Shown here: positions 2,164 through 62,749 of the stretch, one piece after another
Position numbering within the stretch: position 1 is the first letter of the stretch
Layout of the letters: each line of letters starts with the position of its first letter
Origin: Tubiluchus corallicola
Lineage: Eukaryota > Animalia > Priapulida
Assembly (NCBI GenBank): GCA_030141605.1
Contig: JAQGDQ010000697.1
Location: 1-64,000, forward strand
Reading direction: 5' to 3'
Length of the DNA stretch: 64,000 nt
The notes under the pieces: model-generated
What the model saw: the letters and a program-made list of their open reading frames with translations, nothing else
Database searches by the model: none
Told to the model about the DNA's origin: nothing
Made by a program: the position numbers and the translations under genes

Positions 2164-2520
2164 CTGTTATATCTATTAGACAGGTCAATTCTTTATCGCC
2201 AATGCTATTTCTAACCACGAATTTCAAAAGGGTTTCTTTATTTTCAAAGTCCTCCTGTGTAAGCTCCGATACATAAAATTCAGCTGAGAAACAGTCCTCT
2301 TGTGAATGACCACCAGCAGAAGAAACTAATTTAGAGGTAACTCTTTCATTATAAGACTCTTCGCCAATATCATCATGATTAATTGTTTTATCATCGTCCC
2401 ACGTCCAGCTAACAGAAGCGAATTTAGGATTGGAGCAAAAAACACCAGATTCCAGGGTTACACTTTCTCCCAAAGCTCCTTCAGTAGAACAGTCACCTTC
2501 TTCTAAAAAGTTTGGCTCAC
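2164..2520 (-). CDS. Gene A duplicated exon 7 (D5 copy)
   Basis: Same translation as 4443-4799 at offset 2279; splice sites intact. Confidence 0.75.
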
Positions 2521-5500
2521 CTGCAGGGATTTGGTATAACAACTTTTAATATTTATGTGGGATGTTTAATGATTACATTATCTAGTTTACATGATTGTCC
2601 GATATCAAGAAATTGTTACAAATATTATACAAAAGGTTTTTAACATAACAAAATTATAAATTAACACAAATTTAACACAAGCAAGGACAGATCTCATAAT
2701 GAATGAGTCTGTAACTTCTCCGTGGTTTATTATAACAAAATAGTGGATTAAGGTGGAGCACTGACAGAGATTTTCTTTCCAATTGCACTTGAAAAGCACA
2801 TTATAGCGTACATAAGCAAAAAAACGGTGTGTTCCAACAAAAATTAACAAACAAAGTCTATCAAAGCCACAAAATTTTTTCCTTTAAACAACCAGCCTGA
2901 AGATTGTTTAAAAAATCTATTGGATTTTAATTTATACTTTCTTTGCTGTTTTTGTTACCAAATGATTGCAACATTTCGTAACAAATTCCCAGCGGTTATA
3001 GATATATGATTGAAAAGTACTGGACTTTTAAGTAAAAACCACAAGTCAAGACAAACAGCAAAATATTCTAAAACCATACAAGTTGATGCCACAAGCTCGC
3101 TTTTAACTGAGCCGTCTGAGCACTAGTTTGCCAGCCACCAGGACACGAAAAATATAAAGCAAAATCACAGGTGATGAATCCACTAACTAAATAACATCTG
3201 TGTGTTGTGTATATGAAAATGTTCCTTAAAAATGCAAAGTTCTGTTAAAGGAAGAGCTTATCGTATGCCAAGCAGTCGTCTTTAAAAAAACAGCATGCAT
3301 TGCAACAGATACAAGACTGCAAAGTAAGTATGATATTCAGAAGCATTGATGAGTGTATACCATTGATGCAGCTGTAAACAGAAAGAGCCAAAATTCTGTT
3401 GCAACTAAATATGTTACATGTTTTTACTATTTTGATGTATTTGATTAAATCTAAGATATATTAAAAATCACCTAACTGATTGTAAATAGAATATCAAGGA
3501 AAGTCCATGTTACTAAACTATCACAAATAATGAACTACGAGTCTGCAGTGATACTTTGTGCAATTATAATACTTCAAGCAGGATCAGCGGAAAATGTACA
3601 TGAGAGTCACATAAAGACACTACAATGGAAAACAGTGACAGCATAGGGTATTTTCCCACCCAAGAAATAAAGAAACTAGAAAAAACTGCACAAATGTTTG
3701 GGATGTAACTTCTCTGTTACACATTTACATTTTAGCTGGTGAAATGCTAGACTCGCAAAACTCCAACGCATCGAAACATTTTATGCTTTTTTTTAACACG
3801 ACTTTCATTCTTGAATAAAATTCTACAATCTCATTTCAGAATAAATTGTGGGCAGAAATCAGCTGCTACAGAGCTGAAAACAAGCAAAGCAAGAGACATT
3901 TGCTGCGATCTTGCAAGCAATGCAATACATTAGCACCACATGTAAACACATGAATAGAGCTTTTGTGTCCTTTACCTAATATATCTATATTGCAATTGAC
4001 ATCAACCTCACTGACGACATTCTCCACAGTGAATGTAATTTTTCCATCATCAAAATCATCTCTATTAAGTTCTAAGATGTGAAGCTGATAAACTCAACAA
4101 GTTAAAAAGACAAAGAAAATGATGCATGCGTTGCCGACACTGACCAACGACTAGGCTTTCGATTTATATTAAAATGTTAGACAAAGAATCCTGTATCAGC
4201 TTACATGGGGAAAACTGAATTGAAGTCCAAGCAAAACCTTTTTACTAGCAATAGTATTTTATGCCTAACCAACTACTTCATTACCTGTTTGTGCTGTTTT
4301 CTTTTTGAGATTCAGTTCAATGTTATAGTATGTTTGTTTTGCATGAAATTTTGCCAGCATAAACCTGCAAGCTGCCCACATAGAACTAACCACATGTTGC
4401 ACTACCAAGCAACACCACATATACATAAAATGCCTTGGATACCTGTTATATCTATTAGACAGGTCAATTCTTTATCGCCAATGCTATTTCTAACCACGAA
4501 TTTCAAAAGGGTTTCTTTATTTTCAAAGTCCTCCTGTGTAAGCTCCGATACATAAAATTCAGCTGAGAAACAGTCCTCTTGTGAATGACCACCAGCAGAA
4601 GAAACTAATTTAGAGGTAACTCTTTCATTATAAGACTCTTCGCCAATATCATCATGATTAATTGTTTTATCATCGTCCCACGTCCAGCTAACAGAAGCGA
4701 ATTTAGGATTGGAGCAAAAAACACCAGATTCCAGGGTTACACTTTCTCCCAAAGCTCCTTCAGTAGAACAGTCACCTTCTTCTAAAAAGTTTGGCTCACC
4801 TGCAGGGATTTGGTATAACAACTTTTAATATTTATGTGGGATGTTTAATGATTACATTATCTAGTTTACATGATTGTCCGATATCAAGAAATTGTTACAA
4901 ATATTATACAAAAGGTTTTTAACATAACAAAATTATAAATTAACACAAATTTAACACAAGCAAGGACAGATCTCATAATGAATGAGTCTGTAACTTCTCC
5001 GTGGTTTATTATAACAAAATAGTGGATTAAGGTGGAGCACTGACAGAGATTTTCTTTCCAATTGCACTTGAAAAGCACATTATAGCGTACATAAGCAAAA
5101 AAACGGTGTGTTCCAACAAAAATTAACAAACAAAGTCTATCAAAGCCACAAAATTTTTTCCTTTAAACAACCAGCCTGAAGATTGTTTAAAAAATCTATT
5201 GGATTTTAATTTATACTTTCTTTGCTGTTTTTGTTACCAAATGATTGCAACATTTCGTAACAAATTCCCAGCGGTTATAGATATATGATTGAAAAGTACT
5301 GGACTTTTAAGTAAAAACCACAAGTCAAGACAAACAGCAAAATATTCTAAAACCATACAAGTTGATGCCACAAGCTCGCTTTTAACTGAGCCGTCTGAGC
5401 ACTAGTTTGCCAGCCACCAGGACACGAAAAATATAAAGCAAAATCACAGGTGATGAATCCACTAACTAAATAACATCTGTGTGTTGTGTATATGAAAATG

Positions 5501-8500
5501 TTCCTTAAAAATGCAAAGTTCTGTTAAAGGAAGAGCTTATCGTATGCCAAGCAGTCGTCTTTAAAAAAACAGCATGCATTGCAACAGATACAAGACTGCA
5601 AAGTAAGTATGATATTCAGAAGCATTGATGAGTGTATACCATTGATGCAGCTGTAAACAGAAAGAGCCAAAATTCTGTTGCAACTAAATATGTTACATGT
5701 TTTTACTATTTTGATGTATTTGATTAAATCTAAGATATATTAAAAATCACCTAACTGATTGTAAATAGAATATCAAGGAAAGTCCATGTTACTAAACTAT
5801 CACAAATAATGAACTACGAGTCTGCAGTGATACTTTGTGCAATTATAATACTTCAAGCAGGATCAGCGGAAAATGTACATGAGAGTCACATAAAGACACT
5901 ACAATGGAAAACAGTGACAGCATAGGGTATTTTCCCACCCAAGAAATAAAGAAACTAGAAAAAACTGCACAAATGTTTGGGATGTAACTTCTCTGTTACA
6001 CATTTACATTTTAGCTGGTGAAATGCTAGACTCGCAAAACTCCAACGCATCGAAACATTTTATGCTTTTTTTTAACACGACTTTCATTCTTGAATAAAAT
6101 TCTACAATCTCATTTCAGAATAAATTGTGGGCAGAAATCAGCTGCTACAGAGCTGAAAACAAGCAAAGCAAGAGACATTTGCTGCGATCTTGCAAGCAAT
6201 GCAATACATTAGCACCACATGTAAACACATGAATAGAGCTTTTGTGTCCTTTACCTAATATATCTATATTGCAATTGACATCAACCTCACTGACGACATT
6301 CTCCACAGTGAATGTAATTTTTCCATCATCAAAATCATCTCTATTAAGTTCTAAGATGTGAAGTTTGGCTTTGAAACAATCTTCGGCTGAATGACCTCCT
6401 TCAGCATCAGTTAGATTGGAAAAGATTCGTTCATTGTAAATTACTTCACCAGCACCATCATGGCTAATAACTTTATCTACATCCCACGTCCAAGAGGCAG
6501 AACTAAACTGTGGCTTGGAACAGAAGACAGCAGACTCCAGCGTCACACTTTTTCCAACCTCTGCTTCAGTCGTACAGTCATGTTCTCCCAGGAACCGTGG
6601 TCCACCTGATTTGCACACAAGTTTTGATCAAGTAAATCATGACACTTTCTACTAAAACATTGATTACTTTAAACAAGAGATCAATAAGAATAGCTGAATG
6701 TTTGCAGCATAAACTCAGTAGTACTGGTAAGTCTGGTTAGTGAATTGAAACAGACAGAGATTTAGACAGTTCCAACTGCCATACTGCCTGCACCTAAACC
6801 CCATCAAGAGAGAATGTATCTGCATTCGAAGAAGGGGCGACACCTCGGTCATTTAGTGTCCAGTCTTAGAGGATCATCTTTCATAATAAGCTAAGTGGCA
6901 GTCAAGTCTCTGATATCTAAATAAAACAGGTTTTGCCGCCGTGTGTTGAAGTGTATAACTAGCTCATCAAAATAAAAAATAATCAGAAAAAAGAACGTTG
7001 GGCATTTCCAAAAAAATTATGTTAAAGTTATCGACAGTAAATGTAAATATTTCTTTTTAAACACCATACAACAGGTTAAACTTTTAATATTAAAAAGAAC
7101 ATCTAATAACGAAAAACAATAGACAAAGACAAACTAAAATAAAACTTACATGGTTATAATAAACTGTTGAAGAACATTTTCCTAGCAGCTTGACTTCATT
7201 AAGTAGCTGTTCAAGTTAAATCTTCGTAGAGCCAAGTATTCATTATTATTTGTTTAATTAATTTATTAAATATATCCACAACGATCATTACAGTATAGCA
7301 CTATTAATAACATACTTATTATTATGTACACAACATGCCAAGCTGCAAATGACCCGTGGGGTACTCAAGAAGTAATTACTTGTTGAGAGCACCCCAAATG
7401 AATGTGGATTGAGTGAAGTAGAAAAGAGCAGTAAAGGAGTAGAAAAGAAAAGTTAAAGGAGAATGAAAAGAAAGAGAAAGATGTGATGGTATCTGTATGA
7501 AGTAACACAACTATAGAAATATGGAAATCGACATAGCCAGCGACGTGATGGATTCTGACAGGGACAGCAGCGTAATTAGTCAAATTTATTTATTCTATAT
7601 AGTTAGAAAAGTATATTTGATGATATGACTTATCAGACACGTTTATTGCAGAATGGAAGCCTAACTTTGAATGAACTAAAGAATAAACAGCAAGACAAAT
7701 AAGCTAGATGATGACACAAAGGCTGAAGAAAAGGAAGAGAAGGCTTACTGTAAAGTTTCCCAGTTTTGTAAAAGGTCTTCTGAATAAGCCTATAAGCGAC
7801 TTGCGGCATTCCATGTAAAGGTGTAACTAATTGACTTTAATTATGATTGGTTTACCTATTACCATGCGAAATGACTAAATGAAATGTGAAATATGTGGTG
7901 CATGTTAAGTAACTAAAATCAGATGTAAAAAGAAGATGGCTGTACAATGTGTCACTTTTCTGTTCAATATCAAATTTTTATTATTAACTGATAATGTTAT
8001 CATTAATAATAAAAATTCTACACATATAACTGCAGGGTTTAGGGTAAAAATGTTTCATTCATGACTGTAACGAATTTCACAGTAAGCAATTTACTGTTAT
8101 TTTATCAAATATAAAGTTTTGGAACAATACCCGTACTTTACATAAGAGAAATTTAATTTAAAAACAATTTTTGTTTAACTAAAAATGCTAACCGTAACTT
8201 AAGTTTGATACAAATTTAAGTAAATTTCCTAATGAATTGGTGCCTCAAAGTTGCATTTTCTCCTGAATGTTTTATTCGGTTTCGTCCTGTGAAACTTTGG
8301 AAAACTGCAGGTTAAACAACTGTGGTAGCAACGACTTAATTGGATACTGAGTCGTTTCTATGACACTGAATTTGTAAACAATGCTACACAGTGAAATGTC
8401 GCAGCAAAATGTAAACGCTCTTCCAAGGACTGAGTTTTACTAGGGACATCTAACAAGTAAAATGAGTAAAAAACAAGTTCTAGACGTTCTTCTCAAATGA

Positions 8501-11500
8501 CACCTTCATACCAGATTTCCTCTTTTATAAATCACCAAGAAAAACTAGAAGTTTCAGAAAATCTTAGTTAGAGCTTTTTTTGCTAATGTTGTGTTATGTG
8601 CAAACTTCACAGAGTATTCAGAGTTTTGAAATTTAAAGCCCTTGTTAATACTGGTTAAGCCCTTGTTAATAATGAAGGCAATTAAAGCTTATCTATTATT
8701 ACACACATTGTTTCTCTGGCATGTTTATAACCAGTAAGAAGACTAAAATCATGGATGGAGATACTAGAGAAATCTCGGAAGCTGAGGAATGAATTGTCGA
8801 GACAGCAATTAACCCATTTAACATACTAAAACACGATTCTTAGTAAAACTCTTGCAGAGGACTGGCTGTACCCTCTCCCCACTTCCCAAGGATGTATTAG
8901 GGGCAAAGATATTGATTATTTTTGCACAGGAGTGACCGAACCTCCTCCATTTCCCAAGTATTTATCCAAGGCTAAGATATTGATTATTTATTGATTAAAA
9001 CGAGCAGGCAAATGACAATAAATCCAAGCAGCTGAGGTACCTTTACTGGACTCAGGAAGGACAATTCAACAGGTAAGTAAACAAGCTAAAGCTCATGTCA
9101 GTAATATCCTTATTACTAAGTTAGACCGCCAAAGCTTCTCACAATAAAATATGGAATTGTTCAAAACTTCTTTAAACCTGTAGATTTGTGTTCAAATGCC
9201 TGGCTAGAATCAGATTAGTGTCTCTTATTCTTACCTTAAGAGTCGGGTATTCTTAATTTCAAAGGACAAGTAAGATATCTCCGACGTATATCTCTGACGT
9301 AGTTTATCTCTTGCATACTGCATTCAAGCTATTAAAGTGTAAATTATGGGAAGATACACTCTGGGATAACATCCATCTTTTCCCACATTTATAGCAATGG
9401 TTGATGCACAAGTAAGAATTAACACTAGGTGTAAATTGCAACACCTTTACGTAAATTAATCACACGAAACATAGATAAAGTCTCGTGATCTGAGATAAGC
9501 AAAAACAAAATCAGTTGAAACTTGTAAAGAATGGAGCACATCACTTCAACAGATACAAACAGCTAAACGCAAATGCCACAAGACACGATGACAAGGGCGA
9601 AACTCAAATAAGAGTAAAATCATTCCAGTCCAATGTCATGTAGTTCAGTAGTAACAATGAAACTAATCTGGTTACTTTTCAATGATAACTATACTTGATA
9701 ACTATAGTTGATAAATAGATCCATAGATCTTGCCAAGCTGCTAACATTAGGAGCAACAAAATATGTGCAAACTGCCTAATGTCATGCTACAGCAGAGACT
9801 ATTGGTAATAAGAGCAGTAAACAAGTATGTAATTTTACATTAATGGTTACAGATACAGTCACTTTGAGTATGAAGAAATTGTAGCCTGTTTTCAACCAAT
9901 TCAGATAAATTATGTACTGACTATCTGACAGGGATATTTTGTTATGTTGTTGATAGTTTGGTATTTATCACTTGTTGCGCGACCGTTTGTATTCTCGTAA
10001 ATAATTTTTGAAATGTTTTTTTACCTGTTACAACTTGTTTGCTTTTTATACCCAAAAATGGAACCCAATTAACACATTAATAAACCAAAGAAGAAAATAT
10101 TTTTGACATGTTCAAGCACCTCAGATACTAACTGTTACTATCATCAAATGGAAGAAATAATAATTATTAATACCGATGATCTGAGATAAATTAAAACAAA
10201 GTTGGATAAAACTGGTTGAGAATGGAACATATCACTCCAATGGACAGGAATTTTCTTTTAGAACTTCCAGTAGAAAATCACCATTAATTTGGGAAAAGTT
10301 AACGTTATTAACTTGGGAAAAGCTGAATGAACATTAAACAATATTCAAGCTTGAAGAAATTTCATGCAAAACAATAAGATGTGCAGTTAAATATGTGAAT
10401 GACAGCATGCAAATGTAAGCTATGCAATGACTTCACAACTTTTCAATGCTTATTATGGATAAATACATATTACCTATTGTTTAATCACTATTTTATATTT
10501 TTTCAACTAATAACAGGATAAATTATTTAGCCAAGAAATGTTATAATCAGAAAAACAGCTGCTGTCTGTATCAAAACAAGTACAGCAGTAATTCCACCAT
10601 ATTAAAACTTCAGCATTGAACTGACAGTTAACTGTGGTTCTTTTCATAGTTACAGCATTCCGACAAATATATTGTAAAGTGCAAACATCTATGTAAACAC
10701 ATATCTTCAGATATTTTTAAAAAAATCATATTCAAGTCGTTAGCCAAAAACAAAAAGAATAAATGTTTTAAGCTCTATTTAGTAGAGTGAGCAAACATAC
10801 CATTAACTGTTATCTCTACCTCCGCAGATCCACTACCAATGCTGTTACTTGCTTCACATTTGTATTTACCTCCATCGTCCAATGTAACTGAACCCCTTTT
10901 GAGAATTCTGGTTGTTTCAGGTAAATCATTTTTATCTTTACTCCATTCATACTCCGTGGGCTCAGGATTCCCATCAGCTTCACATTCTAGTTCTAGTGTG
11001 TCACCAATGACAACAGTTTCTTTTCCTTGAAGAATTTTGATGTTGAAATTTTCCATCATATCTGCATCATTAAAAATGCAAATTTATATTTGTTTAGTTG
11101 AATAACCACATTTATTTCTTGTAGTTAAAATGTAGAATGAAGCATATTGTAAAATAAAAAAATACAGATGATTGGAAAATCTGAATTTGACACAAACACA
11201 TTAGTTAGCATACAAACATATTATGTATGATAATTCAAACGAAATTTATAGCCAACAACAGCATCAAAGTTAAAGGAAATTTACAGATTACTCTTCCTCC
11301 AAAGGTGAGATGGAGGTAAAAAAGTAGTTTGGACACAGATCACACCAACTTCAGTAAGATGCTATTCATTAACTTCAGTTATTGGTCATTATCAGTAGTG
11401 CCGTTGACGGTCACCACAAAATGTAAGAACAAAGTGAGGGCAAATAGGTCTTGAAAATACATCCTCTGATTCGTAATCAGCACAAAGTGTTTTCAATACC

Positions 11501-14500
11501 TTGGAACGTCTCATATTAACAGTATAGAATGTTTCAACACACTTCATAGTAAATTTTCAAATTACAACTTGGAGAACGATACTTTTATCAGAAGACGCCA
11601 TTCAAGGACATTGACATAACAATGATGTAGCCTTTCAGAGACAATTGTTAACAGGTAATTGTAAAACCAAAACAATTCAACATTTCAGATGAATCTCCGA
11701 TTGCTGAAATTTTAAAATGCTAGCAGTTTTTGCAAATATTCTGAACAAATCCTCTGAAATGCTCATAACATTTTCCATACACTGGAATTAATTGAAATGT
11801 TGATACATCTAACTGTGTCATCGAGTAATTAATTGTCATAGACGTCCTGTTTGGAAAAAAGTCTGTATTAATTTTGAAATATTTCTACAGTTAGCATAAA
11901 TGGTAGCATCGGTTTACAGATTTCTCAACAATACAAAGCAGTGCTTTATGCTAAGCAGCATTTAATCGCTTGCAAGTACTTGTAATGACATGTTGTTACT
12001 GTGTTAAATTTCCTCAATGAGTAGAACCATTACAAAAAATAACTAAAATATCAGTCAATATCTCTGTTCTTTCTAATGCACAGATGTGCTCAGTTCACTC
12101 TTGCATTGCCATTTGGAACTTGATTTGTGACTTGTGTATCAGTATATAAAGTAACAAATGCTAATAATTAGCTCAAAAAAGTGATCTTATTATTGTTTTA
12201 GGCTGATTGGTGTTTTGTAACAAAATCAACAACAGTGACTGCAATGGTACAGTTTCAGAATGCAAATTGATACTCCCAAGAATTGCACAGTAATTTGATA
12301 ATAATATGAGTCGTCATCAGTTATTTGCTGGCCACTTTTTCTTACCTTTTCTATACATTTCCATATTATATTAGTAATAACAACAGATTTGAAATCCCCC
12401 AAATTCACCATCTTCTTTTGAAGCAGAAAAGATATGCACCATGCCAGAAAGGTCTTGAGCAGGCATAGATGGCTATGGCATCAATTTTGGCAGCTTTAGT
12501 ACACAAAGAGGAAAGAGGTGGGATTGTCTAGCCCATTGTTTGGTAACCTTTATTTTCCAGAGGTAATCAATTAAGGCTGAATAAACATAGGAAGGTGGAC
12601 AAAGGGTCTTTTAAGAGGAAGCATGGCTCGTAAAAAATGGCATGAGAGGGACTCAAACCTCGAATCAATGGTCTAACAACGTATGCTACGTCATAGAGCC
12701 TTAAATAAGCCTACCTTTTTAAAAGTGATCATTTGACTTTGTACACTAGTTTTTCTCTGTTTCCAAAAGAAAGAGTTCTTCTCAAGACATTATATAAAAA
12801 GATCTTTTACAGATGATGCTTCAGTAATATTTAAAAATGGCAAGTCAGTATAGCAAAAATGCACATTGATGGACTCTTGGAGAATGTGAACATGTTCATT
12901 ACACCCAACGAGCGAAATATTAAAAAAACTAAAAATTAGATTCTTACTGGTCAATTCCATTGAAATCAAGTATGAGTACACGACTAACCAATAATTTTTA
13001 CTTTGTTACACAGGCATCATTGTTTCTTTATTTATAATGTAGAATTTCTTCATTCTTCTTTATTTATTTACCATTTGTAACCATCCTTAATACCGATAAC
13101 AACCTAAATTCAATTTAGCACTACCAGTAACAACTTACATTCCACATTTAGTGTTTTATTGATAAACTTCAATTCCAGCTCAGGCACGGACACTCTACAT
13201 TGTAAAACTGCTCCATTGTCTCCATGTTCACCAGGTTTAAACGCATGATTCAGTGTACTAATGTCATCATCTTGTACTGCTGAATCCGTAATATCTTCTG
13301 AATCTGAAACAGTATTGCAAAATGAATAATTTAAAGCACATTCAACATGTTCCTTCAATAAGCCTTTTAGAAATTGCACTACGTGTTGTATGTTGTATGA
13401 CAAACGTTATTGGTACCTTTAGCCTGGTGCACTGCATGTCAGATTACTGGTACCATCATGTGACTATATGCTATTGGTCAAACTTCCTTGGCAAAGGCAA
13501 AATACCATAAAGAACTATACCCCACTGTAACCCTAACCCTAAATACATATTTTACTAAGAGTGCAAGTTTGTACCTAAATTTGTTTATAACTTATGTAAG
13601 ACTAAATGTATGTAACAGCCTATAATTTACATACCAACAAACCAGCTGATGACAGGTTTAAGATTTCCGCCTTGAGCTCCACATTTAAATTCCTCATTTG
13701 TGTCGTCAGCTTTAACTGTGACTTCTTGCTCATTTGTTACATCTGTACCATTAAGTGTCATGCTCAAAACTGTAAAGTAGTTTTAGTGCTAAAAATTGAT
13801 TCTAGAATGTAGAATAGAACAAAATACGTGATTCAACACATCCATACAAAAGTTTGCTCCTCTTAGAGTCTGTGCTACAGCCACAATTAGCAGTGGGCTA
13901 ATCTGGATGATCAAAGATACTTTTAATCATTTATGTAAAGTGAAATTTCAGTATAACAGCAATAGTAAAGAAGACAAAGTGCCCATTAAGTCAGGAAAAT
14001 TTTCATTTTTCACAAGGTGCATTCGACCTTCATGGTAGAGAAATACAATAGTAAAAATTATGAAAAGTACGGTGTAAAACTACTTCTTGAAAAACAGCCA
14101 AAACCGACCTGTTTGCTATATAAATCCTGAGTTTAACCAACTATTTGTGGTATACTATCAGCAACAAATAACTGTTTTGTGGTAATTTGAAAAAAAAGAA
14201 TTTATGGGCACTTTGTCTTCTATATGATTAATACAATGCCAAGTCTCAAAAGAGCACTATATTATGTACAATATAACAGTATCAAAAGTTATTATATCTG
14301 CCGACAATTACAATTTGCTTAAAATACTTTGCAAGCATTCCAAAGGAAAATTATCTGAAATGCAAAGAGATGAAACTTGCCATCATGTTCTGTAACAACA
14401 AAGCCTATAAGTCATTTTCAATCCACATAAAACAAAATGAGATATTTTTTCAGGTACATTAGGTCCTTCAAACAACACTGATCTATTTCGCTTTGTAACT

Positions 14501-16804
14501 AAAGTTAGTAACTTTTCTCAACATTAAACATCTAGCGTAATTGCTAACAAATTCTAATAGCATGTGAGTAGGTCATAACTGCACAGCACAGTACAAGATC
14601 TTCTAGGTAAAAAGGTAAAAGCTTCTGCTACTAAGTAAAAGGTTCTTCTTAAAGTGATTTGTTAATAAGTTTGAATCAGCTAAATAACACACCAAAAACT
14701 GTTTAGAACGTAAATTTTGCTCATTACCTCACACAGTTTTGAAAAACTACACCAACATTTCAAATATACCATTACACTAATGCTCTTCCTGGTAGGAATA
14801 CTAGACTGATGACCATGTTTTCTCTAGGGTTGCTCTGCATACTCTTAACTTATTCTAGTTTGATTGTTTTGTTAATATGACCATTGCTAGAACGACCAAT
14901 CAAAATATTGATTTCAAATTTGAGAATCATTCTCATCATAACAGATATTCTGAGAAATTGCAAGGTTTAGTGGAGAAACAGACAAGAAATATTAGAAAAA
15001 TGTAATAAACGATAAATTAATAAACGCAAAAAATTGAACAATTGCAGCAAACAGAGTGGAAAAATACAATTAGAAAAATGGTTCAGGTTAATTATTTTGT
15101 TTATCAGCCGAGCATTTTTCTACAAGAAAACTCAGAAAGTAATAAATCTGTACTAAGCAATAAGTAACCCATATACAGTGTGGCAGCATTGTCTTTTCAG
15201 CATTCACTACTAATAGGCATGTGGTCACTAATGCAGTAAATTACATTTGTCTAAAATAATAATTAATTTTCCAGGTTAATAAACCATTAAACTTTACTCA
15301 CATCTTAAATTTTACTACAAAAATTAATAAACAGACAAAAACTAACAAATGAACCTTCTACTTTAAAAATTAAAACTTTTTGGAAAATAGTACTAATGAA
15401 CAATATAAACGAGAATGCAAAAGCTGATTCTATATCATCAGCAACTGCAGATGCATCACAGAAGGTGTTGCATTACAAAACTGTGACAATTTGTACTTTA
15501 ACTTCCTTCTGTAAAACTTACAAACTCTTATTATCTAATACGTAGAAATGAAATCTGAACAATTATCATATTCTGTGGAAGCATTTTATGTTATATTGTA
15601 TAATTACTTATTCACAAAGCTGAGAGAAGATAATTAAAAATGATGACTTACCAATAACAGTTACTTCTCCTTCGCGTGAATCTTCAATTATATCACCATA
15701 ATCTTGTACTTGGCAGTAATAGACACCATCACGTTGATTTACATCTATATTTGTAATCTTTATACCCCAATTTCCAGTGGTGGGAGGAGTACTGTCAATA
15801 TAAGCATAGTTTTCTTCTTGGCCTACATTAATCTGGTTATTATTAACAAACCAAATAACTGTATGACTGGGAAAAACTCCAATTTTTACTACACAATGTA
15901 GCACAACGTCATCTCCAGGAAAAGCAGCAACATCCTCAGGTTCTTGTTCAAAATATGGTGATTCACTCCGCACATCTGCAAAAAATACAAATTTGAAATT
16001 AAGGAATTCAGATTTTGCTGCAATGGCTAATATGTAAGCAGGTATGTCATATAAATTGTGCATATAAGTAACATGTATACAGTGTGACAGCACTACTTTG
16101 TCGGTTCACATTCTCTACTGCAGTAGCAAGCATATGACAACTATTTGCAGTAAATTATGTATGTATAAAATAGTAATTAAACTTAATAATTGCATAATAT
16201 TAGTAGCAATTAAACTTTAAAACTTTTACAAAGTCTAGGTAAAAATATGAAGTAAGCTTTACACACATTATAAGAAAAATAAAAAAAAACAATTATTAAA
16301 GTGAGAGTTCAACAGGCATTGCTCCAATGAAGAGCAGCTGTTACCAAGAGCAGAGTTGTACACAAACTTTCCAACCACATGATTTTGCTTAGGAGGAAAT
16401 AATTGATTAGGTGCTGATTTTAACTGCATCCAGTGTGTTAATTATACTGGAACTGTTTGTAGCGTGTTAACGCAAAATAAGCTTTCCAAAATGGGTATTT
16501 GCCATTTAAATTATCCTCTCAAGTATCTTGTAACTACACATAATACTACAAGAAGGCAAAATATGTGGAACGATGTAGTATTATGGTAATTGCAACAAAT
16601 CAAATGTTTAGGGTTTAAATAATCAATTAGAATTGTGCACTGAAATACAATATTTCTGATAAACTAGGAAATAATGTAACTAGTTTTTCTTTGCATTAGT
16701 ACAGATTAAAAGTATCTCTGACATTAAGAAATTATTTTTTGTTTTTACTTACAGTTAATGAAAAGGAAAATAATCAAAAGTAGCAGTGTATCGTATGATC
16801 TCAT
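2164..16804 (-). CDS. Gene A: IgSF receptor, inverted paralog of gene B; 3' exons not seen in the window
   Basis: Exons 16804-16753, 15975-15652, 13769-13635, 13303-13139, 11061-10801, 6605-6255, 4799-4443 and duplicate 2520-2164. All have AG/GT borders and phase-1 junctions, and each matches a gene B exon (roughly 90-98% aa identity). Confidence 0.85.
4443..4799 (-). CDS. Gene A exon 7, atypical Ig-like domain D5
   Basis: FCSNP...WTW...DCFSAEF; 357 nt; matches 35103-35459. Confidence 0.88.
6255..6605 (-). CDS. Gene A exon 6, atypical Ig-like domain D4
   Basis: FCSKP...WTW...DCFKAKL; 351 nt; matches 33320-33670. Confidence 0.88.
10801..11061 (-). CDS. Gene A exon 5, I-set Ig domain D3
   Basis: LECEADGNPEP.YEW...DGGKYKCEASNSIG; 261 nt; AG/GT borders. 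Confidence 0.9.
13139..13303 (-). CDS. Gene A exon 4, second half of D2
   Basis: DNGAVLQCRV...KTLNVE; 165 nt, one Asp codon shorter than in gene B. Confidence 0.85.
13635..13769 (-). CDS. Gene A exon 3, first half of C2-like Ig domain D2
   Basis: FKCGAQGGNLKPVISWFV; 135 nt; matches 26893-27027. Confidence 0.85.
15652..15975 (-). CDS. Gene A exon 2, V-like Ig domain D1
   Basis: LHC...W...DGVYYC Ig motif; TGCAG acceptor, GTAAGT donor; 324 nt. Confidence 0.9.
16753..16804 (-). CDS. Gene A exon 1, signal peptide MRSYDTLLLLIIFLFIN
   Basis: ATG at 16804, 52 nt, followed by GTAAGT; same peptide as gene B exon 1. Confidence 0.85.
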
Positions 16805-48627: not shown

Positions 48628-50133
48628 AAAAAATTATAGCATTAAAAAAGTCTCATCTAAATCTTCCCAGAATCTATGCAATATTTTTCTTTTTTTAGCT
48701 TTAATTTTTCTGTAATTTCTAAAGTGATGGAAATAACCCAGTTTCCCGGTGGGCCAGTCCGATACTATATCACAGAAAAACTATAGAAACTACACAACTT
48801 GAAACTGTAAGCATTGTAACAGGTGCAGTTAGAGGTACTAATCACGAAATTATTTAATTATAATGAATGCAAGTGAGAAACATTATAATCTCGTCAAAAA
48901 TCACAGTAAGGAGAAATCGTCACTGTGTATGTGGTTGGCAAGCTGAAGATGCTAGGCAACATTTCATAGCATGCAATCCCTCAAGGTCACCAACTCTCTG
49001 TAGGTTTGCTAATAAATGGGTTTGACAGGCTTGCAGAAGGTGATAACATTTTGATAAGTAACGTAATTGAATTTATTGAGTGAAGCAGAATGATTAGTGA
49101 TTACTAAAATGGCTAATGCTGTCTAATGCTGTATATAAATTTATATACAAGTTGAACTAACGCTGTTTGTAAATTAGACATATATTTCAATTTGTGTAGT
49201 TTACCAAAGATTTATACTAATATGACAAACTGAGAAAAATATTATTACTGTAATTTCAATAATGTTTTTATGCATATCAACAGTTCAAACAGCTTTAATT
49301 TAGCTTGCCTGCTGTTTCTTAGACCATTGAACTGTAACAAATATGTGGAAAATGTTGTTACAATAAAGTTGAATTTTTTTAATGAAAAGGTTTTAATCCT
49401 CTGGCGCTTGATGCCGCCAACGTACCGCTGATGAGAAAAACGTAACAAATTTCGTACTTGAATTACAGTACGATTTGGCATGCTGAGTTGATAAATTCTA
49501 CGATTTCCCTTATTGCTTTTAATGGAAAGTGCAAAACGTGGAAAATAGCAGACTACAAATCACCACGCTTCGATTTTAAAGTATTTTACTAATAAAAATC
49601 GATTTTAACTATATGCGCCCGCGTATGCAATACTGTACGTTTTTGCACAAGTAAGCCAATCATTTAAAATTATTATTGTTTTAGTTGCACATTTCAAAAT
49701 ATGGATTTGTAACTCTTTTGTAATTTATTGTCCACTTCAGCATGTAACTTTACTTTACAATTTGCGTTATCATCTTATAATTATATGCAGCAAATCTAGG
49801 AAAAATCAAATATTCTTGTACACCTTCAGAGTTTGTTCCGGGTGCTTGGGCAACTGATCAACTCTCTCTCTCTCTCTCTAGAAGACCTCGTTGTTATTTG
49901 ATGTAGACCTCTCGACTATGTCAACTGTTACTGTTACTAAGATCTAGAAGGCCTCACTGCTATTTGATGTAAACCTGGCTATTCTTCGAGTTTGTAGTGA
50001 AGTCTTGCGTGGGTGTGATGGGGTCTTAGAATGTAATTATAATATTATAATCACAAGGTTTTTATTATTTTAGCAACAAATACACTTGATGTCATCTTAA
50101 AGAGGTATTAGAAAACCTGCTTGAATCTACGAA

Positions 50134-50185
50134 ATGAGGTCATACGATACACTGCTGTATTTGAGTCTTTTCATGTTTGTTTCTT
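50134..50185 (+). CDS. Gene C exon 1, signal peptide MRSYDTLLYLSLFMFVS
   Basis: 52 nt, homologous to the other leaders, GTAAGT donor. Confidence 0.82.
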
Positions 50186-53100: not shown

Positions 53101-56100
53101 CGTCAGCTATAGTTTTTGGCTATAGGTTATAAAAGGCTGCAGATGGCACTAAACAAGTACTCCTTTAGTAACCTGTCATTTGCCTGCTGCTTCTTGAGTT
53201 AGAACTTAAAGTACTTAGAGATACATAGTAGTATTGGTTCTAAAAGTTACCACCAGGTTAGAATGATTATAACAGGTTGGCCGGATTCTTATTTCTAGAC
53301 AAGCAGATCATATCTTTTTTAGTTCAGGCAAATGTTTTACATGGTCAACAAAAATCTGAAAATTCATTTGTAGGCCTGTTGGTAATGGGACCAAAAACTT
53401 TCTTATTAAGATTTTGCTATAGCAAAACTTTCTGTTTTCATTGAGTTATTTATTTATTTATTTTCCGCCAATTTAACGCTTAGTAACTCCTAAGTCTTGC
53501 AAGCTAGGGTCACCGAACTCGCAGGGTTGATACACAACTGTATAGCAACTGCTGACCAATGGTCAAGGGGGAAGGACAGTGGGTGTTGGTCAATTTTTCC
53601 TTTATGATTCAACTCCGCTAGGGCTTTCGTTTTTTTCCAAATTTTTTTTCACAAGTATTTGGGTATTGTGGGGTAGATGTGCACCTGGGGTTTTAAAAAG
53701 CTGGTAAGATTTGGGGTCCCCCAATTTGTGACCTTTTACACGCTGAGTGCTAGGGACACAAAACTCACAGGGTACACTCTCTGGCAAAAGTTATATACGT
53801 ATACGCGTGACCTGAGTCGCTGGGTCAAAGGTCACGGAGTGGTCGAGTCTTCGTTTATTTCTCTTTAGAATGCATAATTTTTGAGCTAGGGCGACAATAT
53901 TTGGCATGTGGTTAAGTGGAGCCAAGTTGTTGGATATGGCAAAATATGGGTAATTTGGAGGGGTGAAAAATTTTCCACTAGGGGGCAAAAACCGAAAAAT
54001 GGGGGTCGTGAACAGAAATGCATCGAGTGTCTATGAATACTACCATGTAGAACATCAAATAAAAGGTCTTGATGAGGCGAATCGAATGGTGTCAATTACA
54101 GTGGGAATCCTTAACCTGTGACCCAGTTAGGGGCAAAATAGGGGTCGAAGAGACAAATGCTTCCATGGTCTACCAAAAGCAGGTTGTTGTTATCAAATGA
54201 AAGGCCTCAATGAGACAAACTGAATGACTTAAGTTATGCCAAGGTTGTTGACCTTTGACCCGTGGGTGATGGGCTGAAGAGTTAAATGCTGAGGCTTCAT
54301 TGTGAAATGCACTTTCCATGTATTCAAGCAATTCAATAAAAGAAAAGAGCATTTTTTAAAAAAGGCTGTCATCTCTTCATTTTTAAAGCTGAATTTTACA
54401 ACTATTGTTTGCAAAATCTTCAGTTTCTGACCACTTCAGAAACATTGTTAGCTGGTTTATTTCCTTTCTATAACGAAAAGTCCTGTTATATAATTCATGT
54501 TTCCACAGAAATGTTCTTATTAGATTAAATACAGGCATTAGGTGAACCTTGCCTTAGTCACTTACCTTATCTTAGGTGTGACTGTCTCTAACTTAATCAC
54601 GTTTGTCAGCTTGAGACTTGATGTCAACATGAGCTTCAATACATATAAGTTAAAATTTCCAAACCTGTGATTACTTGGTTAAACGCTTGATTTGCAGGTG
54701 TGCAGGATGAAACGCAAGCAACACCATTTGAACAAGAACCCGAGGATGTTGTTGCTCTTCCTGGAGATGATGTTGTGCTAACATGTGTGATAGAGAGCAA
54801 TTATGTCCACAATGGTCACGGTGTTCTCTGGTTTCTTAATGGCAATCTGCAAGACATAGATGGTGAAAACTTCACGTATCTTGACATTGATGCTCCTACC
54901 AGTGGAGACTGGAGTATAAACGTTGTGAATATAAATGTAAATCAACGGGATGGTTCATATCTCTGCCAGTATAGGCCATTTCAAGGCCAGGTGGAAAACG
55001 CACGTGAAGTAGAAGTTACTGTTGTTGGTAAGTATGTAAGACATTCTTAGTTACTTTTAATACTTTTGCTGAGTATTTTATTCAGAGCTTCTGATCTTTT
55101 GTGATCATGGAAAATGGACAGAATTCACATGGGCAACTGAAACAGCTGCGAAAAACAGAATTAGTCTGATTTAGTTTTCATTATTTATTCACTTAATTGT
55201 TGCTTAATTAATTCATTCATACTTGACTTAGTGTGTATAATATAGTAATTTTTGTGTAGAAACGTTATCTCTGACGTGTTACTAGGAAATATTTGAAATT
55301 TTTGTTTATAAACTAATTTAAAGTCGTAATTATAATAGTTCCAGCAACTATCAGTATGCTGCTGAATGATGTGCTACATGTGAAACCCTCGATTACAGTT
55401 GGAGCAGAAGACATCTCTAATCAGCTCAAATGTGAAGCCATAAGCAACTGCAAAGTTCTGCCAACCATAAGTTGGTTTATTGGTAATATCTTTCTAATTA
55501 TTATATACTTTAATGATCTATGTAACTTATTCTGTTTTGATATAAATTAATCATATAATATCATCATCATCATCATCATCACCACCTGACTAAGTTACTG
55601 CTTACATCAACACACACGCCATGCCAGCTTTTATCATATCCTTGTCACCAGCACCACCACTACTACAGTAGCCCTTACTTAAACTATATTAGAATATTTT
55701 TAAATAGATTATCGTTGACATAAAGGTAATATTAAGTGTACATTAGGTGCATTAAATCAAAGACCTATATATATGTCACATATTTTCTTGTTATCATCAG
55801 GTTATAATTTATATTACATGCAGGTTCAGCTCCTGTCAACTCTCGTTCAGAAACTATGCTGGATCTAAACACCAATTTTACTAATGTTGTGAGCACAATG
55901 GATGGTTATTCATTTAAACCTGAAGATAATGGAAAGCAGCTGACCTGTCAAGTTTTTATACATGACATTTTGTCAAAACAGTTTATTAACAGGACACTAA
56001 ATGTACAATGTAAGTTAAATTTTTAGTAATCTATCTTACTGCTAGATGTGAGTAAAATATTCAGACAGAGTGTCCATGTTACAACAACCACATTAATAAC

Positions 56101-58169
56101 ACGTTTTAAACACTGTGTATTGAAGAAGTGTATGTAGCATGCTGCAAATGACCTTGATGGGTCTGGGTCTTTTAGAATGAAAAAGTGAAGTAAAATTGAA
56201 CAATAAATAAAAGTAACATTAAAATCAAAATTATTGTTAATGATGTTACAAATCCACAATTTTTTAGTTTTGATGCCCAGGCTTTTCCTTTTTTCTTTGA
56301 CTCTCTTTCTCTTTACCCTCTTTCCCTGTATCTCTCCTTCTGTCTTGTCTTGCATTCCTGCTATATTAGGAGATTCGTTTTTGATACAGATATTACATCT
56401 GTTACCGTGAAATTGCCTAACGGAGATGATACTAAGATTACAGTTGGCAGTGGCTTTGAGCTGATTTGTGATGCAAATGGGAACCCAGAACCTTCTTATC
56501 AGTGGAGTGGTCCTAATTTGTCAAGTGGAAACACCGGCAAAAAAGTTACGAAGAAAAATGCGGAATTAGTTGATGGAGGGACATACACTTGTACAGCTAG
56601 GAATGCTGTTGGAGAGAGAAAAGGCAGCTTAACTATAAAAATTGTAAAGGAAGGTGGCAAAGAAGAAAACGGTGATAAAAATGGTGGTGGGGGATCTGGA
56701 GATGAAGATAATGGTGAGTGCATTGATTAAGGACCTAAGAGAATTAACCTTGCTAAAACACAGAAATGGTTGTTAGTTATGTAATAGTTTTGTTTCTGTT
56801 ACCGGAGTGTCGTACATTTTCATTTGCGATTGATGATTGAAAGTACTACTACCAATAATTAGACATGTGCTGGCACCTACATTTAAAATTGTTCATTTTT
56901 GTAGCTTAATTTAAGTTCAATGCAGAGAAAAAGAGTGAGATTGAATTATTTTATATTAATTAATTAATTATGCACATCATATAATCAATAAGCACAACAA
57001 ATTGTTTAACATTAAGTCCGTGCTTATACAATGTTGTAATATTAAGCACACTTGTTGTAATTAATGGTCAATGACATCAGCTGCCCTTTTTCCTAGAATC
57101 AATGTTAACAGCTGCGTCAGGGCAATGACTTCATAGTAAGAGCAATGACCAGCTGCACACAGTTCTTAGAAACTGTTACAGGGCAATGCCTCACTGTGCT
57201 CATTTCCCTATTTCCTGGAAACAGTTATGACCAGATGTGTTCATTTCCCTATTTCCTGGATACAGTAAGGACCAGATGTGCTCATTTCCCTATTTCCGGG
57301 AAACGGTTATGACCAGATGTGCTTACTTCCTAGAAATAACCAAAAACCTGCATCCACTTCTTGGAAACAATCACGCCAGGGCAATGACTCACTGTGCTCT
57401 TTCCTCACTTCTAGGAAACAATTGCGTCAGGGCAATGGCTTCCTAGAAAGGGCAATGACCAGTTGCACAAAGTTCTTAGAAACTGTTACAGGACAATGAC
57501 TCACTGTACTCATTTCCGTGTGTCCTGGATACAGTTATGACCAGTCATGCTTACTTCCTAGAAATAGCCTTTAACACCTGCATCCAGTTCTTGGAAACAG
57601 TCGCATCAGGGCAATGACTCACTTCTAGGAAACACCCTAGCAGCTGCATAGTCCGGCCTATACAGGCAATTAGCAACAAAATGCTCTGACCAATAAGACT
57701 CAAGCTGACCACTGACCAGAACTTGGTTGACAGTATTCCTTTCAGATTATTACAATTTTTTAAATTTTTTTTTAAACAAAGGGAGAATGAATGATGTTAC
57801 GCAAAATATTTCTAAGAATTTTTTGATAAATCATAACCATAATAATATGTTGATAATGCAAAGAATTTTAACCTTGCAATTAAAATTAGCTTCGATGTAT
57901 ATTGATTATTAACGTTGTACTGCATTTTAAGTTTATTGATTCTAGCACTATGCATTTGGGAGTTAACAGGAATTAAATAGTTGAAAATTGAATGCCTAAC
58001 ATCATGATGAAAAACCAGCATAAGGGGTGTAGCTCCTACATCTATGACTTTAGTCACAAGCACTAATGTTCTTTATTTTGTTTCAGGGCAAAATGGTTGC
58101 AATTTTCCGAGAAAGTTCTTGTTTGGACACGTTGTTATTCTCACTGTTATTGTTTATTTTGTTAGATGA
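50134..58169 (+). CDS. Gene C: 3-Ig (V, C2, I) protein with Gly/acidic spacer and predicted GPI-anchor signal, 372 aa
   Basis: join 50134-50185, 54698-55027, 55339-55482, 55824-56009, 56390-56713, 58087-58169 = 1119 nt open frame; same exon layout as exons 1-5 of A/B. An alternative in-frame exon 3 acceptor gives a start at 55345. Confidence 0.85.
50205..52726. repeat. 37-bp minisatellite, about 68 copies, in gene C intron 1
   Basis: Consensus AATAAAAGTACTTTGAGTTTGTAGTAATGCAAGCAGT with interspersed variants. Confidence 0.97.
53403..54449 (+). mobile_element. Helentron-associated (HINE/DINE-like) element in gene C intron 1
   Basis: 5' AAGATTTTGC-tata-GCAAAA, 3' GCAAAATCTT followed by hairpin GTTTCTGA-ccact-TCAGAAAC; GC-richer than the flanks. 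Confidence 0.6.
54698..55027 (+). CDS. Gene C exon 2, V-like Ig D1
   Basis: FEQEPEDV..PGDDVVLTC...W...NQRDGSYLC; TTGCAG/GTAAGT; 330 nt. Confidence 0.9.
55339..55482 (+). CDS. Gene C exon 3, first half of D2
   Basis: LKCEAISNCKVLPTISWFI aligns to FKCGAQGGNLKPVISWFV. Confidence 0.78.
55824..56009 (+). CDS. Gene C exon 4, second half of D2
   Basis: FKPEDNGKQLTCQV...FINRTLNVQ; TGCAG/GTAAGT. Confidence 0.85.
56390..56713 (+). CDS. Gene C exon 5, I-set D3 plus Gly/acidic linker
   Basis: LICDANGNPEPSYQW...DGGTYTCTARNAVG...KNGGGGSGDEDN; TACAG/GTGAGT. Confidence 0.88.
58087..58169 (+). CDS. Gene C terminal exon 6a, GPI-signal-like
   Basis: TTTCAG acceptor; GQNGCNFPRKFLFGHVVILTVIVYFVR*. Confidence 0.78.
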
Positions 58170-58944: not shown

Positions 58945-59027
58945 AGCAAAATGGTAGCAATTTTCCGAGAAAGTTCTTGTTTGGACACGTTGTTATTCTC
59001 ACTGTTATTGTTTATTTTGTTAGATAA
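58945..59027 (+). CDS. Gene C duplicate terminal exon 6b, GPI-signal-like
   Basis: TTTCAG acceptor; EQNGSNFPRKFLFGHVVILTVIVYFVR*; AATAAA at 59361. Confidence 0.7.
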
Positions 59028-60590: not shown

Positions 60591-62107
60591 TAGTATGACA
60601 TAGTATGTTTATTTAGTATGACTTAAGCATCTGATATGGCGGTCTCATTGATAGTCTTTCTTGTTTCAGTTTAGTTACTGTTACCATCTTTATTATTTCA
60701 ATTTGAAATAATAATAATTCAAATAAACAATCTACACTTTCTACAATCATTACAGCTTTAATTAGACAAAATCAGACAATTAAAAAAAAAATAGGTAAAA
60801 TATTTTCTGGAAAACTTCACATGCAGTTTAATTCCATGTAAAGCTTGATGCTGTTTGACTTCCATCACTAAGAATGCACAAGAGCTATTCAGTATTAAAC
60901 TGCTTCTGCTCTCTGGATGCTCTATTAATAAAATAAGTTCTTTCTTGTTCTTCGTTTTTTTCTCTATTTATCTTGTTTATTCTGTGTACACTTGTTTATC
61001 TGTTTGTTTTAGTTCTCATCTGTTTAGCTGTTTTTTTATTGATTCATTTGTGTCTGACTTAATCGTAACATTTGTGCACATTTCTGACATGTATCTGGAA
61101 GAGAACCGGAAATCTATGCACATATTCAATTTGGCCATAATAATACGGTTCAATATTCCAACGAAGTGAACAAAAATGTGAACCCAAGTGTCAAAAATAA
61201 TGGAATTGTAATTTCAAAAGTGGAAGAAACATGGAAATACGTCTTTATACAGGGTGTGTAGAAATCAGATCTGATGCTATTGGAAATTTTGAAATTTAGT
61301 GAGTAGGTTATTATGTAGTTATATATTTTGATAATATAAGTCACCTTAGAGATAAGCATATATGTAACTCTTGGTTTAGAATATTGTTATTGTAGAATTA
61401 AGGTTTTGTTGAAACTGGCATGCTGTAAAACATTCTAAAATCTGGAAACTGGATTATAATTATATATTATATATTTTTCTAAATGTAAGTAACCCAAAAG
61501 ATAGGCATATTGTTTTACTCTCGGATTAGAATATTGATATTGTGTGAGTCGTCAGAATTAAAATGAACCTGAAATAACAGAAATGATGTTCCAGTTTCTC
61601 CTGGTGATTTCCCACATTGCCTGGAGCAAAAAAGCGAAAAAATAGCAGATGACAAATCGCCGTGCTTGTAAATTCGGATAATACGTCTTGCTTGACAAAA
61701 GTTTTAAAACTGTAAATACAAGAACACAGATTAGAATGTCGTGATAATTATTATGACAAAAGGTTAGTATACTGTTCACATCTTGATTAATATGCTTTTA
61801 GATCATTCCTGTAATAAAGTCGCATGTTACTCACAGACCTCTCAACCATGTCAGCTGTTACTGTTACTAAAACCTAGAAGACCTCGCTGCTATTTCATGT
61901 AGACCTCTCAACTATGCAAATTGTTACTGTTAGTGTTACTAAAATCTAGGAGGCCTCGTTGCTATTTGATGGCTATTCTTCGAGTTTGCAGTGAAGTATT
62001 GTATGGGCGTGATGGCGGTCTTAGAATTTAATTATAATCACAAGGTTTTTATTATTTTAGCAACCAAAACGTAAAGAGACATTAGAAAGCCTGCTTGAAT
62101 CTGCAAA

Positions 62108-62749
62108 ATGAGGTCATACGATACACTGCTGCATTTGATTGTTTTCCTGTTCATTAACTGTAAGTAAAAACAAAAAATTATTTCTTAACGTCAGAAATAA
62201 AACTTCTAATCTGTAGTAATGCAAAGATTAACTAACGTTATTTCCTAGTTTCTCAGAAAAAAAATTTATATATATATATGTAATTATGTATTTATTTATA
62301 ATTATGTATCTATGTATGTGTACTTGGTTATATGGTTCTATTTTTGAAATCAATTCATTCATTACGCATACTAGCCGTAGCAGCTAAATCTAAATTTCTT
62401 ATTTTTAAGTTTGTACTTTTTGCAGATGCATGGTGTGAATCACAATATTTTGAACAAGAACCTGAGGATGTTCCTACTCTTCCTGGAGATGACGTTGTGG
62501 TACAATGTGTAGTAAAAAGCGGGGTTCCACAAGGATATCAGTTTTCTTGGTTTCTTAATGAACAGTTCTTTGATCCAGACGCGGATGATAATTATGATTA
62601 TATTGGCGGTCATCCTCCTAGCATTGGAAACTGGAGTATAAGAATTAAAAATGTAAATGTAAATCAACGTGATGGTTCCTATCACTGCCGAGTGTCAGTT
62701 ATTGGTGAAGGATATGAAGATTCTAGCAAAGGAAAAGTAATTGTTGTTG
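62108..62749 (+). CDS. Gene D (5' part): leader exon 62108-62159 and V-like Ig D1 exon 62426-62749; presumably continues beyond the window
   Basis: MRSYDTLLHLIVFLFIN + YAWCESQYFEQEPEDV...C...W...DGSYHC; GTAAGT, TGCAG, GTAAGA splice sites. Confidence 0.87.

Follow-up and report, generated by a model that had tools for sequence, protein, structure and literature searches.

A cluster of four paralogous immunoglobulin genes

We examined positions 1-64,000 of contig JAQGDQ010000697.1 from the priapulid Tubiluchus corallicola (assembly GCA_030141605.1), a stretch of 64,000 nt (G+C content 27-39%, no N) that we call the window and whose positions serve as coordinates throughout. The window carries a real and intact cluster of four immunoglobulin (Ig) genes, here named A to D, and the evidence presented below supports placing them in a lineage-specific, expanding and diversifying family of Ig receptors. 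Exons were located by six-frame translation together with splice sites and then joined by script. As a preliminary description of the locus had proposed, all four loci share a 52-nt coding leader exon (ATG at 16804 on the minus strand, 23290, 50134 and 62108) followed by an Ig exon of 324-330 nt, with GT-AG ends on every modelled exon and no internal stop after splicing. The continuation described there for the three longer genes, a V-like first domain (D1), a C2-like second domain (D2) and an I-set third domain (D3) on phase-1 exons, was recovered in A, B and C, where D2 is split over half-exons D2a and D2b. Every leader, ectodomain and transmembrane junction is in phase 1, and the sole phase-2 junction lies between the two tail exons of gene B.

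Gene B (plus strand, 865 aa) encodes a leader, seven Ig domains, a transmembrane segment and a two-exon tail. Part of its 5' untranslated region (UTR) and the leader occupy 23230..23341, and D1 (24403..24726), D2a (26893..27027), D2b (29593..29760) and D3 (31913..32173) are followed by four atypical I-set domains: D4 (33320..33670), D5 (35103..35459, 50% identical to D4), D6 (36086..36409, lacking any cysteine) and D7 (36634..36957). The transmembrane exon (37653..37760) is predicted from hydropathy, while the two tail exons, the first of 34 nt (41047..41080) and the second encoding four tyrosines and the stop (42674..42833), are predicted from splice sites only. A 54-nt copy of part of the D6 exon sits directly past the D7 donor (36980-37033), and the intron 3' of the transmembrane exon contains a decayed non-long-terminal-repeat (non-LTR) retrotransposon on the minus strand (38069-39542; RVT_1, E 2e-11).

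Gene A (minus strand, 667 aa) begins with 60 nt of 5'UTR and the leader (16753..16864), continues with D1 (15652..15975), D2a (13635..13769), D2b (13139..13303), D3 (10801..11061), D4 (6255..6605, an atypical I-set domain without the B-F cysteine pair) and D5 (4443..4799), and ends with a second copy of D5 (2164..2520). No anchor exon for this gene was found in the last 2.1 kb of the window. Two hydrophobic stretches 3' of it were rejected as anchor exons, being frames of a 12-bp minisatellite.

Gene C (plus strand, 370 aa) comprises part of the 5'UTR and the leader (50074..50185), a D1 of 330 nt (54698..55027), D2a (55345..55482), D2b (55824..56009), a D3 extended by a stalk of glycine and acidic residues (56390..56713; D1 and D3 also by Pfam), and either of two terminal exons (58087..58169 and 58945..59027), which are duplicates of each other and both open. 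The first has the features of a glycosylphosphatidylinositol (GPI) signal, namely small residues, a short spacer and a hydrophobic C-terminus, and both receive matches from a sequencing run (X5, below). A 37-bp satellite of 68 copies with 94% matches (50209-52725) begins 24 nt past the leader donor and occupies most of the leader-D1 intron. Gene D (plus strand) shows only part of its 5'UTR with the leader (62061..62159) and D1 (62426..62749) before the window ends 1.25 kb later, so that its later exons fall outside. Differing anchors, which had been claimed for the cluster as a whole, are therefore seen in two of the four genes, a transmembrane helix in B and a GPI-like end in C, with none visible for A and D. 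When all exons were compared with the window by tBLASTn, just two more fragments (part of a D4 inside the duplication described below and 18 codons of D6) and one chance-level match appeared, and there was no additional D1 exon anywhere in the window.

A conserved splice acceptor upstream of the start codons

The 250 nt upstream of the ATG are 77-89% identical among the genes, with alignment scores of 189-349, whereas the best score among 60 random controls was 32.5 once the cluster loci had been excluded (before this exclusion one of 30 random windows scored 292, probably because it held a paralog). This block had been described as a shared promoter. The block itself is real and conserved; however, in all four genes it ends in a pyrimidine-rich acceptor, AG|CAAC, 60 nt before the ATG (47 nt in D), with the AG at 16865, 23229, 50073 and 62060. 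Furthermore, the match of a contig from a probable RNA run (contig 29) to gene A starts at 16864, the first base past the acceptor AG, and the first 87 nt of this contig match nothing on the window. Because of these two features, we consider a promoter less likely here than a trans-splice acceptor or an intron of the 5'UTR that ends in the block. Immediately 5' of the acceptor, each of the four genes has copies of a 60-66-bp minisatellite unit (17007-17568, 22932-23091, 49877-49976 and 61835-61971), which has grown to 9.4 copies in gene A.

Duplications within the cluster

Self-comparison of the window by BLAST revealed a large inverted duplication (~1.7-17.2 kb versus 22.9-35.9 kb) and a tandem one of 2.3 kb. 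It also showed that a block at 57-59 kb is duplicated and that four blocks near the start codons are related. The inverted duplication makes A and B a head-to-head pair with 81-95% identity by block. In their exons the two are near-twins (95-98.5% nucleotide identity; 102/107 aa, or 95%, in D1 and 82/86 aa in D3), and the homology of A to B stops ~160 nt short of the position of B's D6. The tandem duplication contains the second D5 exon of gene A and is 100% identical over ~2.28 kb, all five differences lying within the first 20 bp.

These features raise the question of whether assembly errors created part of the cluster, with A and B representing two haplotypes of one gene and the second D5 a mis-join. 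The non-coding divergence between A and B is indeed about that of an A-like contig found in sequencing runs X1 and X2 (35-36 differences in 425 nt). Within the D5 duplication, moreover, an exactly matching X2 contig (1788-2125) has a depth of 106.6, not raised over the 105.1 of an unduplicated stretch. Conversely, ~5.2 kb of mostly non-palindromic DNA separates A from B, contigs of both X1 and X2 span gene A's own 3' breakpoint at 1710, and the junction of the D5 duplication carries a short microhomology. The D1 domains of C and D are moreover only 47-54% identical to those of A/B and to each other, so that the family stands regardless. Taken together, we regard such an artefact as very improbable. 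For the D5 duplication considered alone, the lack of doubled depth in the contig inside it leaves two explanations, a very recent and private event or a mis-assembly. The ongoing duplication asserted for this cluster is seen in the inverted copy and in the duplicated terminal exon of C, whereas gene A's second D5 may be an assembly error.

The spacer between A and B includes a near-perfect (97%) palindrome of 214 bp (19066-19279). It also includes an inverted pair of segments, 18649-18947 and 20840-21140, 74% identical and placed ~2 kb 5' of A and of B in gene-sense orientation, which is either a common upstream element or a transposon end.

Domain folds

D1 matches the Pfam models Ig_3, V-set or I-set in all four genes and D3 matches I-set, Ig_2 or Ig_3 in both copies tested (Ig_3 at E 1.4e-14 in gene B), most copies of the two domains passing the Ig cut-offs. 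The B-F cysteine pair is present in D1, and its cysteines, tryptophan and D-G-x-Y-x-C motif are invariant across the four genes. We call this domain V-like rather than V because its V-set score (19-25 bits) lies below the cut-off of 26, with Ig_3 or I-set equal or higher in three of the four, and because the structure model of gene B's D1 is mediocre (pLDDT, its predicted local distance difference test score, of 68; best Z 7.0, a tie between V and I domains). Two of the five D2 half-exons scanned weakly match complementary halves of the CD80-like C2-set_2 model (gene B D2a to positions 6-35, E 0.17; gene C D2b to positions 51-81, E 0.16).

The membrane-proximal domains D4-D7 have F-x-S-x-P and W-x-W motifs in common and are without the B-F cysteine pair; outside this pair there are four cysteines each in D4 and D5, two in D7 and none in D6. 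The model of gene B's D4 (pLDDT 90.9) has an I-set fold and aligns with I-set domains of NCAM2, titin, DIP-theta and Kirrel3 Ig5 at Z 12.2-13.2 (NCAM2 at Z 13.2, root-mean-square deviation 1.8 over 96 aligned residues), which, together with the Pfam matches of D1 and D3, places the proteins in the Ig superfamily. Searches of the PDB sequences with the D2 halves and D4-D7 returned nothing specific.

The first-domain loops change faster than non-coding DNA

The paralogs had been said to differ in their D1 loops. The window holds three D1 types (A/B, C and D), rather than four, since those of A and B are nearly identical. To locate the differences, loops BC, C'C'' and FG were assigned from an Ig template and the model. 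Gene D's D1 differs from that of A at 44/99 and from that of B at 47/99 loop nucleotides, compared with 16-17% both in the rest of the exon (38/225 and 37/225) and in non-coding DNA (152/901 and 132/816). Expressed as the proportion of nonsynonymous differences (pN), the loops reach 0.44-0.47 against a proportion of 0.18-0.20 in introns (Fisher p 1e-5 and 3e-7, for two comparisons that share the D lineage and are not independent), while the D1 framework, with a pN of 0.18-0.19, equals intron divergence. Over the whole D1 exon, A or B is 77-78% identical to D and thus not better conserved than in the flanking introns, which are 80-83% identical. These observations indicate that evolution is faster in the D1 loops than in the non-coding DNA around them.

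Across six ectodomain exons, the near-twins A and B differ by 31 nonsynonymous and 23 synonymous changes, and the ratio of pN to the corresponding synonymous proportion (pS) of 0.36 (p 0.0003) indicates overall purifying selection and hence that these exons are not decaying. The genes also look like mosaics: 5' of the ATG it is C and D that are closest (196/221), whereas around D1 gene D aligns with A/B and gene C does not.

A probable transcript and indications of further family members

Contigs from five of six sequencing runs (X1-X6, all but X3) were compared with the window; X6 is guessed to be RNA. One of its contigs (contig 26, 1013 nt; treated as a single contig in two comparisons because length and depth are equal) matches the leader (record positions 9-89), D1 (92-183 and 293-343), D2a (462-572), D2b (580-697) and D3 (809-845) in order, and the spacing of these matches is that of spliced exons if its D1 is ~348 nt long, the D1 exons of the window being 324 or 330 nt. 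Another (contig 25, 165 nt) carries the start of a second D1 type. All 11 matching X6 records (six in one comparison and five in the other, the five including three on an AAC repeat) are less than 90% alike to the window. The long contig is therefore probably a spliced transcript of a diverged family member, or of a diverged allele, rather than of the four window genes as they stand, and the family does not appear silent, since a contig in this probable RNA run passes from leader through D3 without introns. No match was found in X6 on D4/D5 or on gene C's exons from D2 to the GPI-like end, and no RNA run was listed for 31800-37800; neither result bears on expression.

The DNA runs point to additional copies. 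In X2, 11 contigs have another letter at 15957, at the start of D1, and contigs at gene C's D2b, at its terminal exons and in the C-D interval reach depths of ~700-1480 (790-1480 over gene C's 3' region), compared with 105-170 for exact or one-difference pieces. The pattern suggests that C-like copies number from several to ten or more, with the proviso that contig depth is not copy number and that dispersed repeats may account for some of the positions. Gene D is represented in X2 by near-identical alleles (one difference in 206 nt and none in 242), and X2 may derive from the source animal. In X5, none of 128 contigs matches at ≥99%, and six of eight listed pieces fall on exons (leader, D1, D2a and the GPI-like exons). 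At the two GPI-like exons the matching pieces have loose ends to either side, which supports constraint on these exons. X5 and X6 bear the same species label as X1 and yielded no contig at ≥99% on the stretches compared, which hints at a diverged population or a cryptic species.

These data also bear on whether the genes are duplicates under relaxed constraint that are for the most part redundant and lack a special function, lying in an unstable region rich in repeats, where drift and gene conversion would have produced the loop differences. Such an explanation would account for a D1 framework that diverges at the intron rate between A/B and D, for the early end of gene A's homology to B and for the many repeats. 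It sits poorly with the open reading frames and intact splice sites of all modelled exons, the constraint between A and B, the exon-limited X5 matches and the spliced family RNA, and we think it quite unlikely.

Searches for relatives among known proteins

A word search of 5.8 billion proteins gave, among longer proteins, no close homolog for gene B's D1 (32 candidates) or for a D4-D7 profile (7994 candidates), although such blanks are weak evidence. A full HMMER search with D4 against 1.84 billion representatives returned two matches. The first, P0001, was rejected as spurious, being a repetitive protein with ten short matches. The second, P0002, is an unnamed transmembrane protein of 274 aa that contains a hydrophobic segment and two D4-D7-type domains. 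It is 30% identical to D7 over 102 aa (hhalign probability 96.6) and is a credible distant relative, so that this type of domain is not unique to this animal. A word search with P0002 itself found nothing among 2043 candidates, again a blank of little weight. In a protein-cluster atlas, D5 scored best (0.90) with an unnamed cluster at low recognition, and P0002 fell among basigin-like two-Ig clusters, which we read as a shared layout only. No close homolog that would make these genes one-to-one orthologs of a conserved adhesion gene thus emerged from the word or HMMER searches. This result, the fast D1 loops and the indications of further members agree with the preliminary description's view of a diversifying, lineage-specific family. 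The open papers searched contain no description of such a family, a weak indication, and it is apparently undescribed.

Comparison with known clustered Ig systems

The same description had derived the proteins from Kirre/nephrin-like and Fasciclin-III-like parts, which amounts to no more than a resemblance. Generic I-set domains rank first in the D4 fold search (Z 13.2), with Kirrel3 Ig5 at Z 12.2, and no Fasciclin III chain was listed in the fold and PDB sequence searches of the membrane-proximal domains; the presumed likeness to Fasciclin III lies in the W-x-W motif of D4-D7. Kirrel has five extracellular domains and Nephrin about ten (PMC6525511), compared with seven Ig domains in B and three in C. 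Nectins, Necls, Kirrels and Wirins (PMC6525511) belong to the stock from which the V-C2-I core likely derives.

Wirins (Dpr, DIP, IgLON and Lachesin) combine a signal peptide, three N-terminal Ig domains and a GPI or transmembrane end, a layout shared with the outgroups Nectin/Necl and Kirrel/Nephrin and with our cluster, and have expanded independently in several phyla (PMC6525511). A lineage-specific expansion of a neural or developmental surface code of the Dpr/DIP, nectin or Kirre type, in which paralogs would label cell types through D1-D1 contacts, must thus be considered. Gene C, with its three Ig domains and GPI-like end, fits the Wirin layout of two or three Ig domains and a hydrophobic or GPI C-terminus, and NCAM2, DIP-theta and Kirrel3 Ig5 are among the D4 fold matches. 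Gene B, with seven Ig domains and a tail, does not fit, four of its domains being atypical I-set additions. Among the matches listed in the D1 searches there is no DIP, Dpr, IgLON or Lachesin at E ≤0.01, and Kirre D1 stands at just E 0.09. Stable wiring families are, moreover, not known for copies that turn over very recently or for loops that change above the non-coding rate. We therefore judge a wiring code to be unlikely.

The Alr genes of Hydractinia form a clustered family of the Ig superfamily, in which domain 1 is of the V-set kind, non-canonical Ig domains occur, exons have been shuffled and homophilic binding is specific to the variant (bioRxiv 10.1101/2022.03.04.482883). The likeness to our cluster extends to duplication, domain shuffling and tyrosine-bearing tails, and D4-D7 are likewise without the canonical B-F cysteines. 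The variable D1 loops would, by inferred placement, lie on or beside the GFCC'C'' face used in Ig-Ig binding (PMC6525511). A code for self/non-self or gamete recognition is therefore conceivable, in which cells would bind one another through identical D1 variants and compatibility selection would maintain diversity. However, Alr domain 1 lacks the B-F cysteines, each domain occupies one exon, and one to three Ig domains with an Fn3-like spacer lead to tails many of which bear immunoreceptor tyrosine-based activation or inhibitory motifs (ITAM or ITIM) (bioRxiv 10.1101/2022.03.04.482883), whereas in the cluster D1 keeps this cysteine pair, two exons make up D2, the number of Ig domains in B is seven, C has a GPI-like end, the I-set fold is that of the membrane-proximal domain tested, and neither ITAM/ITIM nor an Fn3-like spacer is present. 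The near-identity of the D alleles in X2 also speaks against maintained diversity, though X2 may be the source animal, and there is no sign that the animal is colonial. On balance, allorecognition or gamete recognition seems to us unlikely.

The CEACAM family of vertebrates includes GPI forms as well as signalling members whose tails bear an ITIM, an immunoreceptor tyrosine-based switch motif (ITSM) or an ITAM-like motif, and its N domains are not known to have the B-F cysteine pair. D1 of the cluster keeps this pair, D2 is a split CD80-like C2 domain, and the tail of B is without ITIM, ITAM or ITSM. No CEACAM chain is among the best 60 of 131 D1 matches or the eight profile matches, and the sole link is a generic D3 match among 96 Ig chains. 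The points of likeness to CEACAM/PSG genes are the clustered paralogs, a diversifying N-terminal V-like domain, near-twin ectodomains and mixed transmembrane and GPI-type ends, within a family for which paired-receptor logic and N-domain diversification are described (PMC5112662). The likeness to CEACAMs is one of analogy, not orthology.

Two further systems share general organization. Amphioxus VCBPs are clustered invertebrate V-domain genes with copy-number variation, inverted repeats and haplotype complexity (PMC2632668), and combine two V domains with a chitin-binding domain; neither B nor C has a chitin-binding exon, and both have a single V-like domain. Chelicerate sDscam genes have clustered variable N-terminal Ig domains, but their domains derive from Dscam and are encoded in 5' cassettes that stand in tandem and use alternative promoters (PMC4835542). 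In an sDscam or protocadherin-type layout, many variable 5' cassettes are spliced to a single constant region that all of them share, whereas in our cluster D2-D3 and the later exons are separate for A, B and C, which also differ in strand. The cluster is consequently assigned to none of CEACAM, Alr, Kirre/Nephrin, sDscam or VCBP, as it departs from each in a defining feature.

Other repeats in the window

A related pair of fragments (22094-22506 and 42960-43266) has no Pfam match and presumably represents the end of an RTE-type retrotransposon. Two pairs of dispersed repeats of 270-400 bp with ~81% identity (19486-19885 with 44595-44993, and 20583-20846 with 37129-37396) are probably non-autonomous transposons, and a short stretch at 63580-63780 resembles by eye what we take to be a decayed LTR-retrotransposon polymerase.

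A candidate recognition family

The organization described above, with a V-like domain at the tip, stalks of different length and different anchors on a common V-C2-I core, would in the reading that we favour be that of a young, expanding, CEACAM-like recognition family undergoing birth-and-death evolution driven by pathogens, a prediction of function by analogy to which we give a little less than an even chance. Under such a model, the N-terminal D1 would bind a foreign ligand, probably microbial or parasitic, and conflict with this ligand would push the loops to change. Gene B could then be the signalling form, with a long stalk, a transmembrane helix and four tyrosines docking SH2 adaptors, C-type genes could be multi-copy, non-signalling, GPI-anchored forms acting in adhesion or as decoys, and gene A could be a near-twin of B that is truncated before its anchor or runs past the window. 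Tandem and inverted duplication, along with exchange between paralogs, would supply the turnover.

Several observations weigh against this model. Whole-D1 ratios of nonsynonymous to synonymous rates (dN/dS) of 1.45 and 1.21 are not significantly above 1 (p 0.21 and 0.53), the two comparisons have the D lineage in common, and the synonymous sites of the loops have diverged as well (pS 0.45-0.50), so that positive selection accounts for the pattern no better than an exchange of loop blocks with older paralogs would. By an ITSM pattern, and by ITIM and ITAM consensus sequences taken from bioRxiv 10.1101/2022.03.04.482883, the predicted tail of gene B, which is the only tail in view, has none of these motifs and carries single YxN, YxxP and YxxI motifs, and no activating partner for B is in view in the window. 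Nectin/Necl and three-Ig wiring receptors likewise have a V-C2-I layout (PMC6525511). The X6 records, all being less than 90% alike to the window, represent other members or diverged alleles, and this run, a guessed RNA, may come from a diverged population like that of X5; the contig depths that suggest many copies are no true copy number.

A bolder version of the pathogen-driven model is that the cluster belongs to an independent invertebrate counterpart of the CEACAMs, with at least 10 V-C2-I receptors bearing hypervariable D1 loops, few of them signalling through tyrosine tails and many serving as GPI-anchored decoys or adhesins, with copy number varying between animals and a role in immune or self recognition, in a phylum without a described diversified Ig family. 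We consider this speculative and, in its entirety, somewhat unlikely. Diversified Ig receptors outside vertebrates form a short list of VCBPs, FREPs and Dscam (PMC13428168), on which Alr also belongs. The design itself is already known, and the cluster remains a candidate; if the proposal is true, a CEACAM-type design would have arisen again from V-C2-I adhesion parts, and the cluster offers concrete genes with which to ask what drives Ig diversification in invertebrates.

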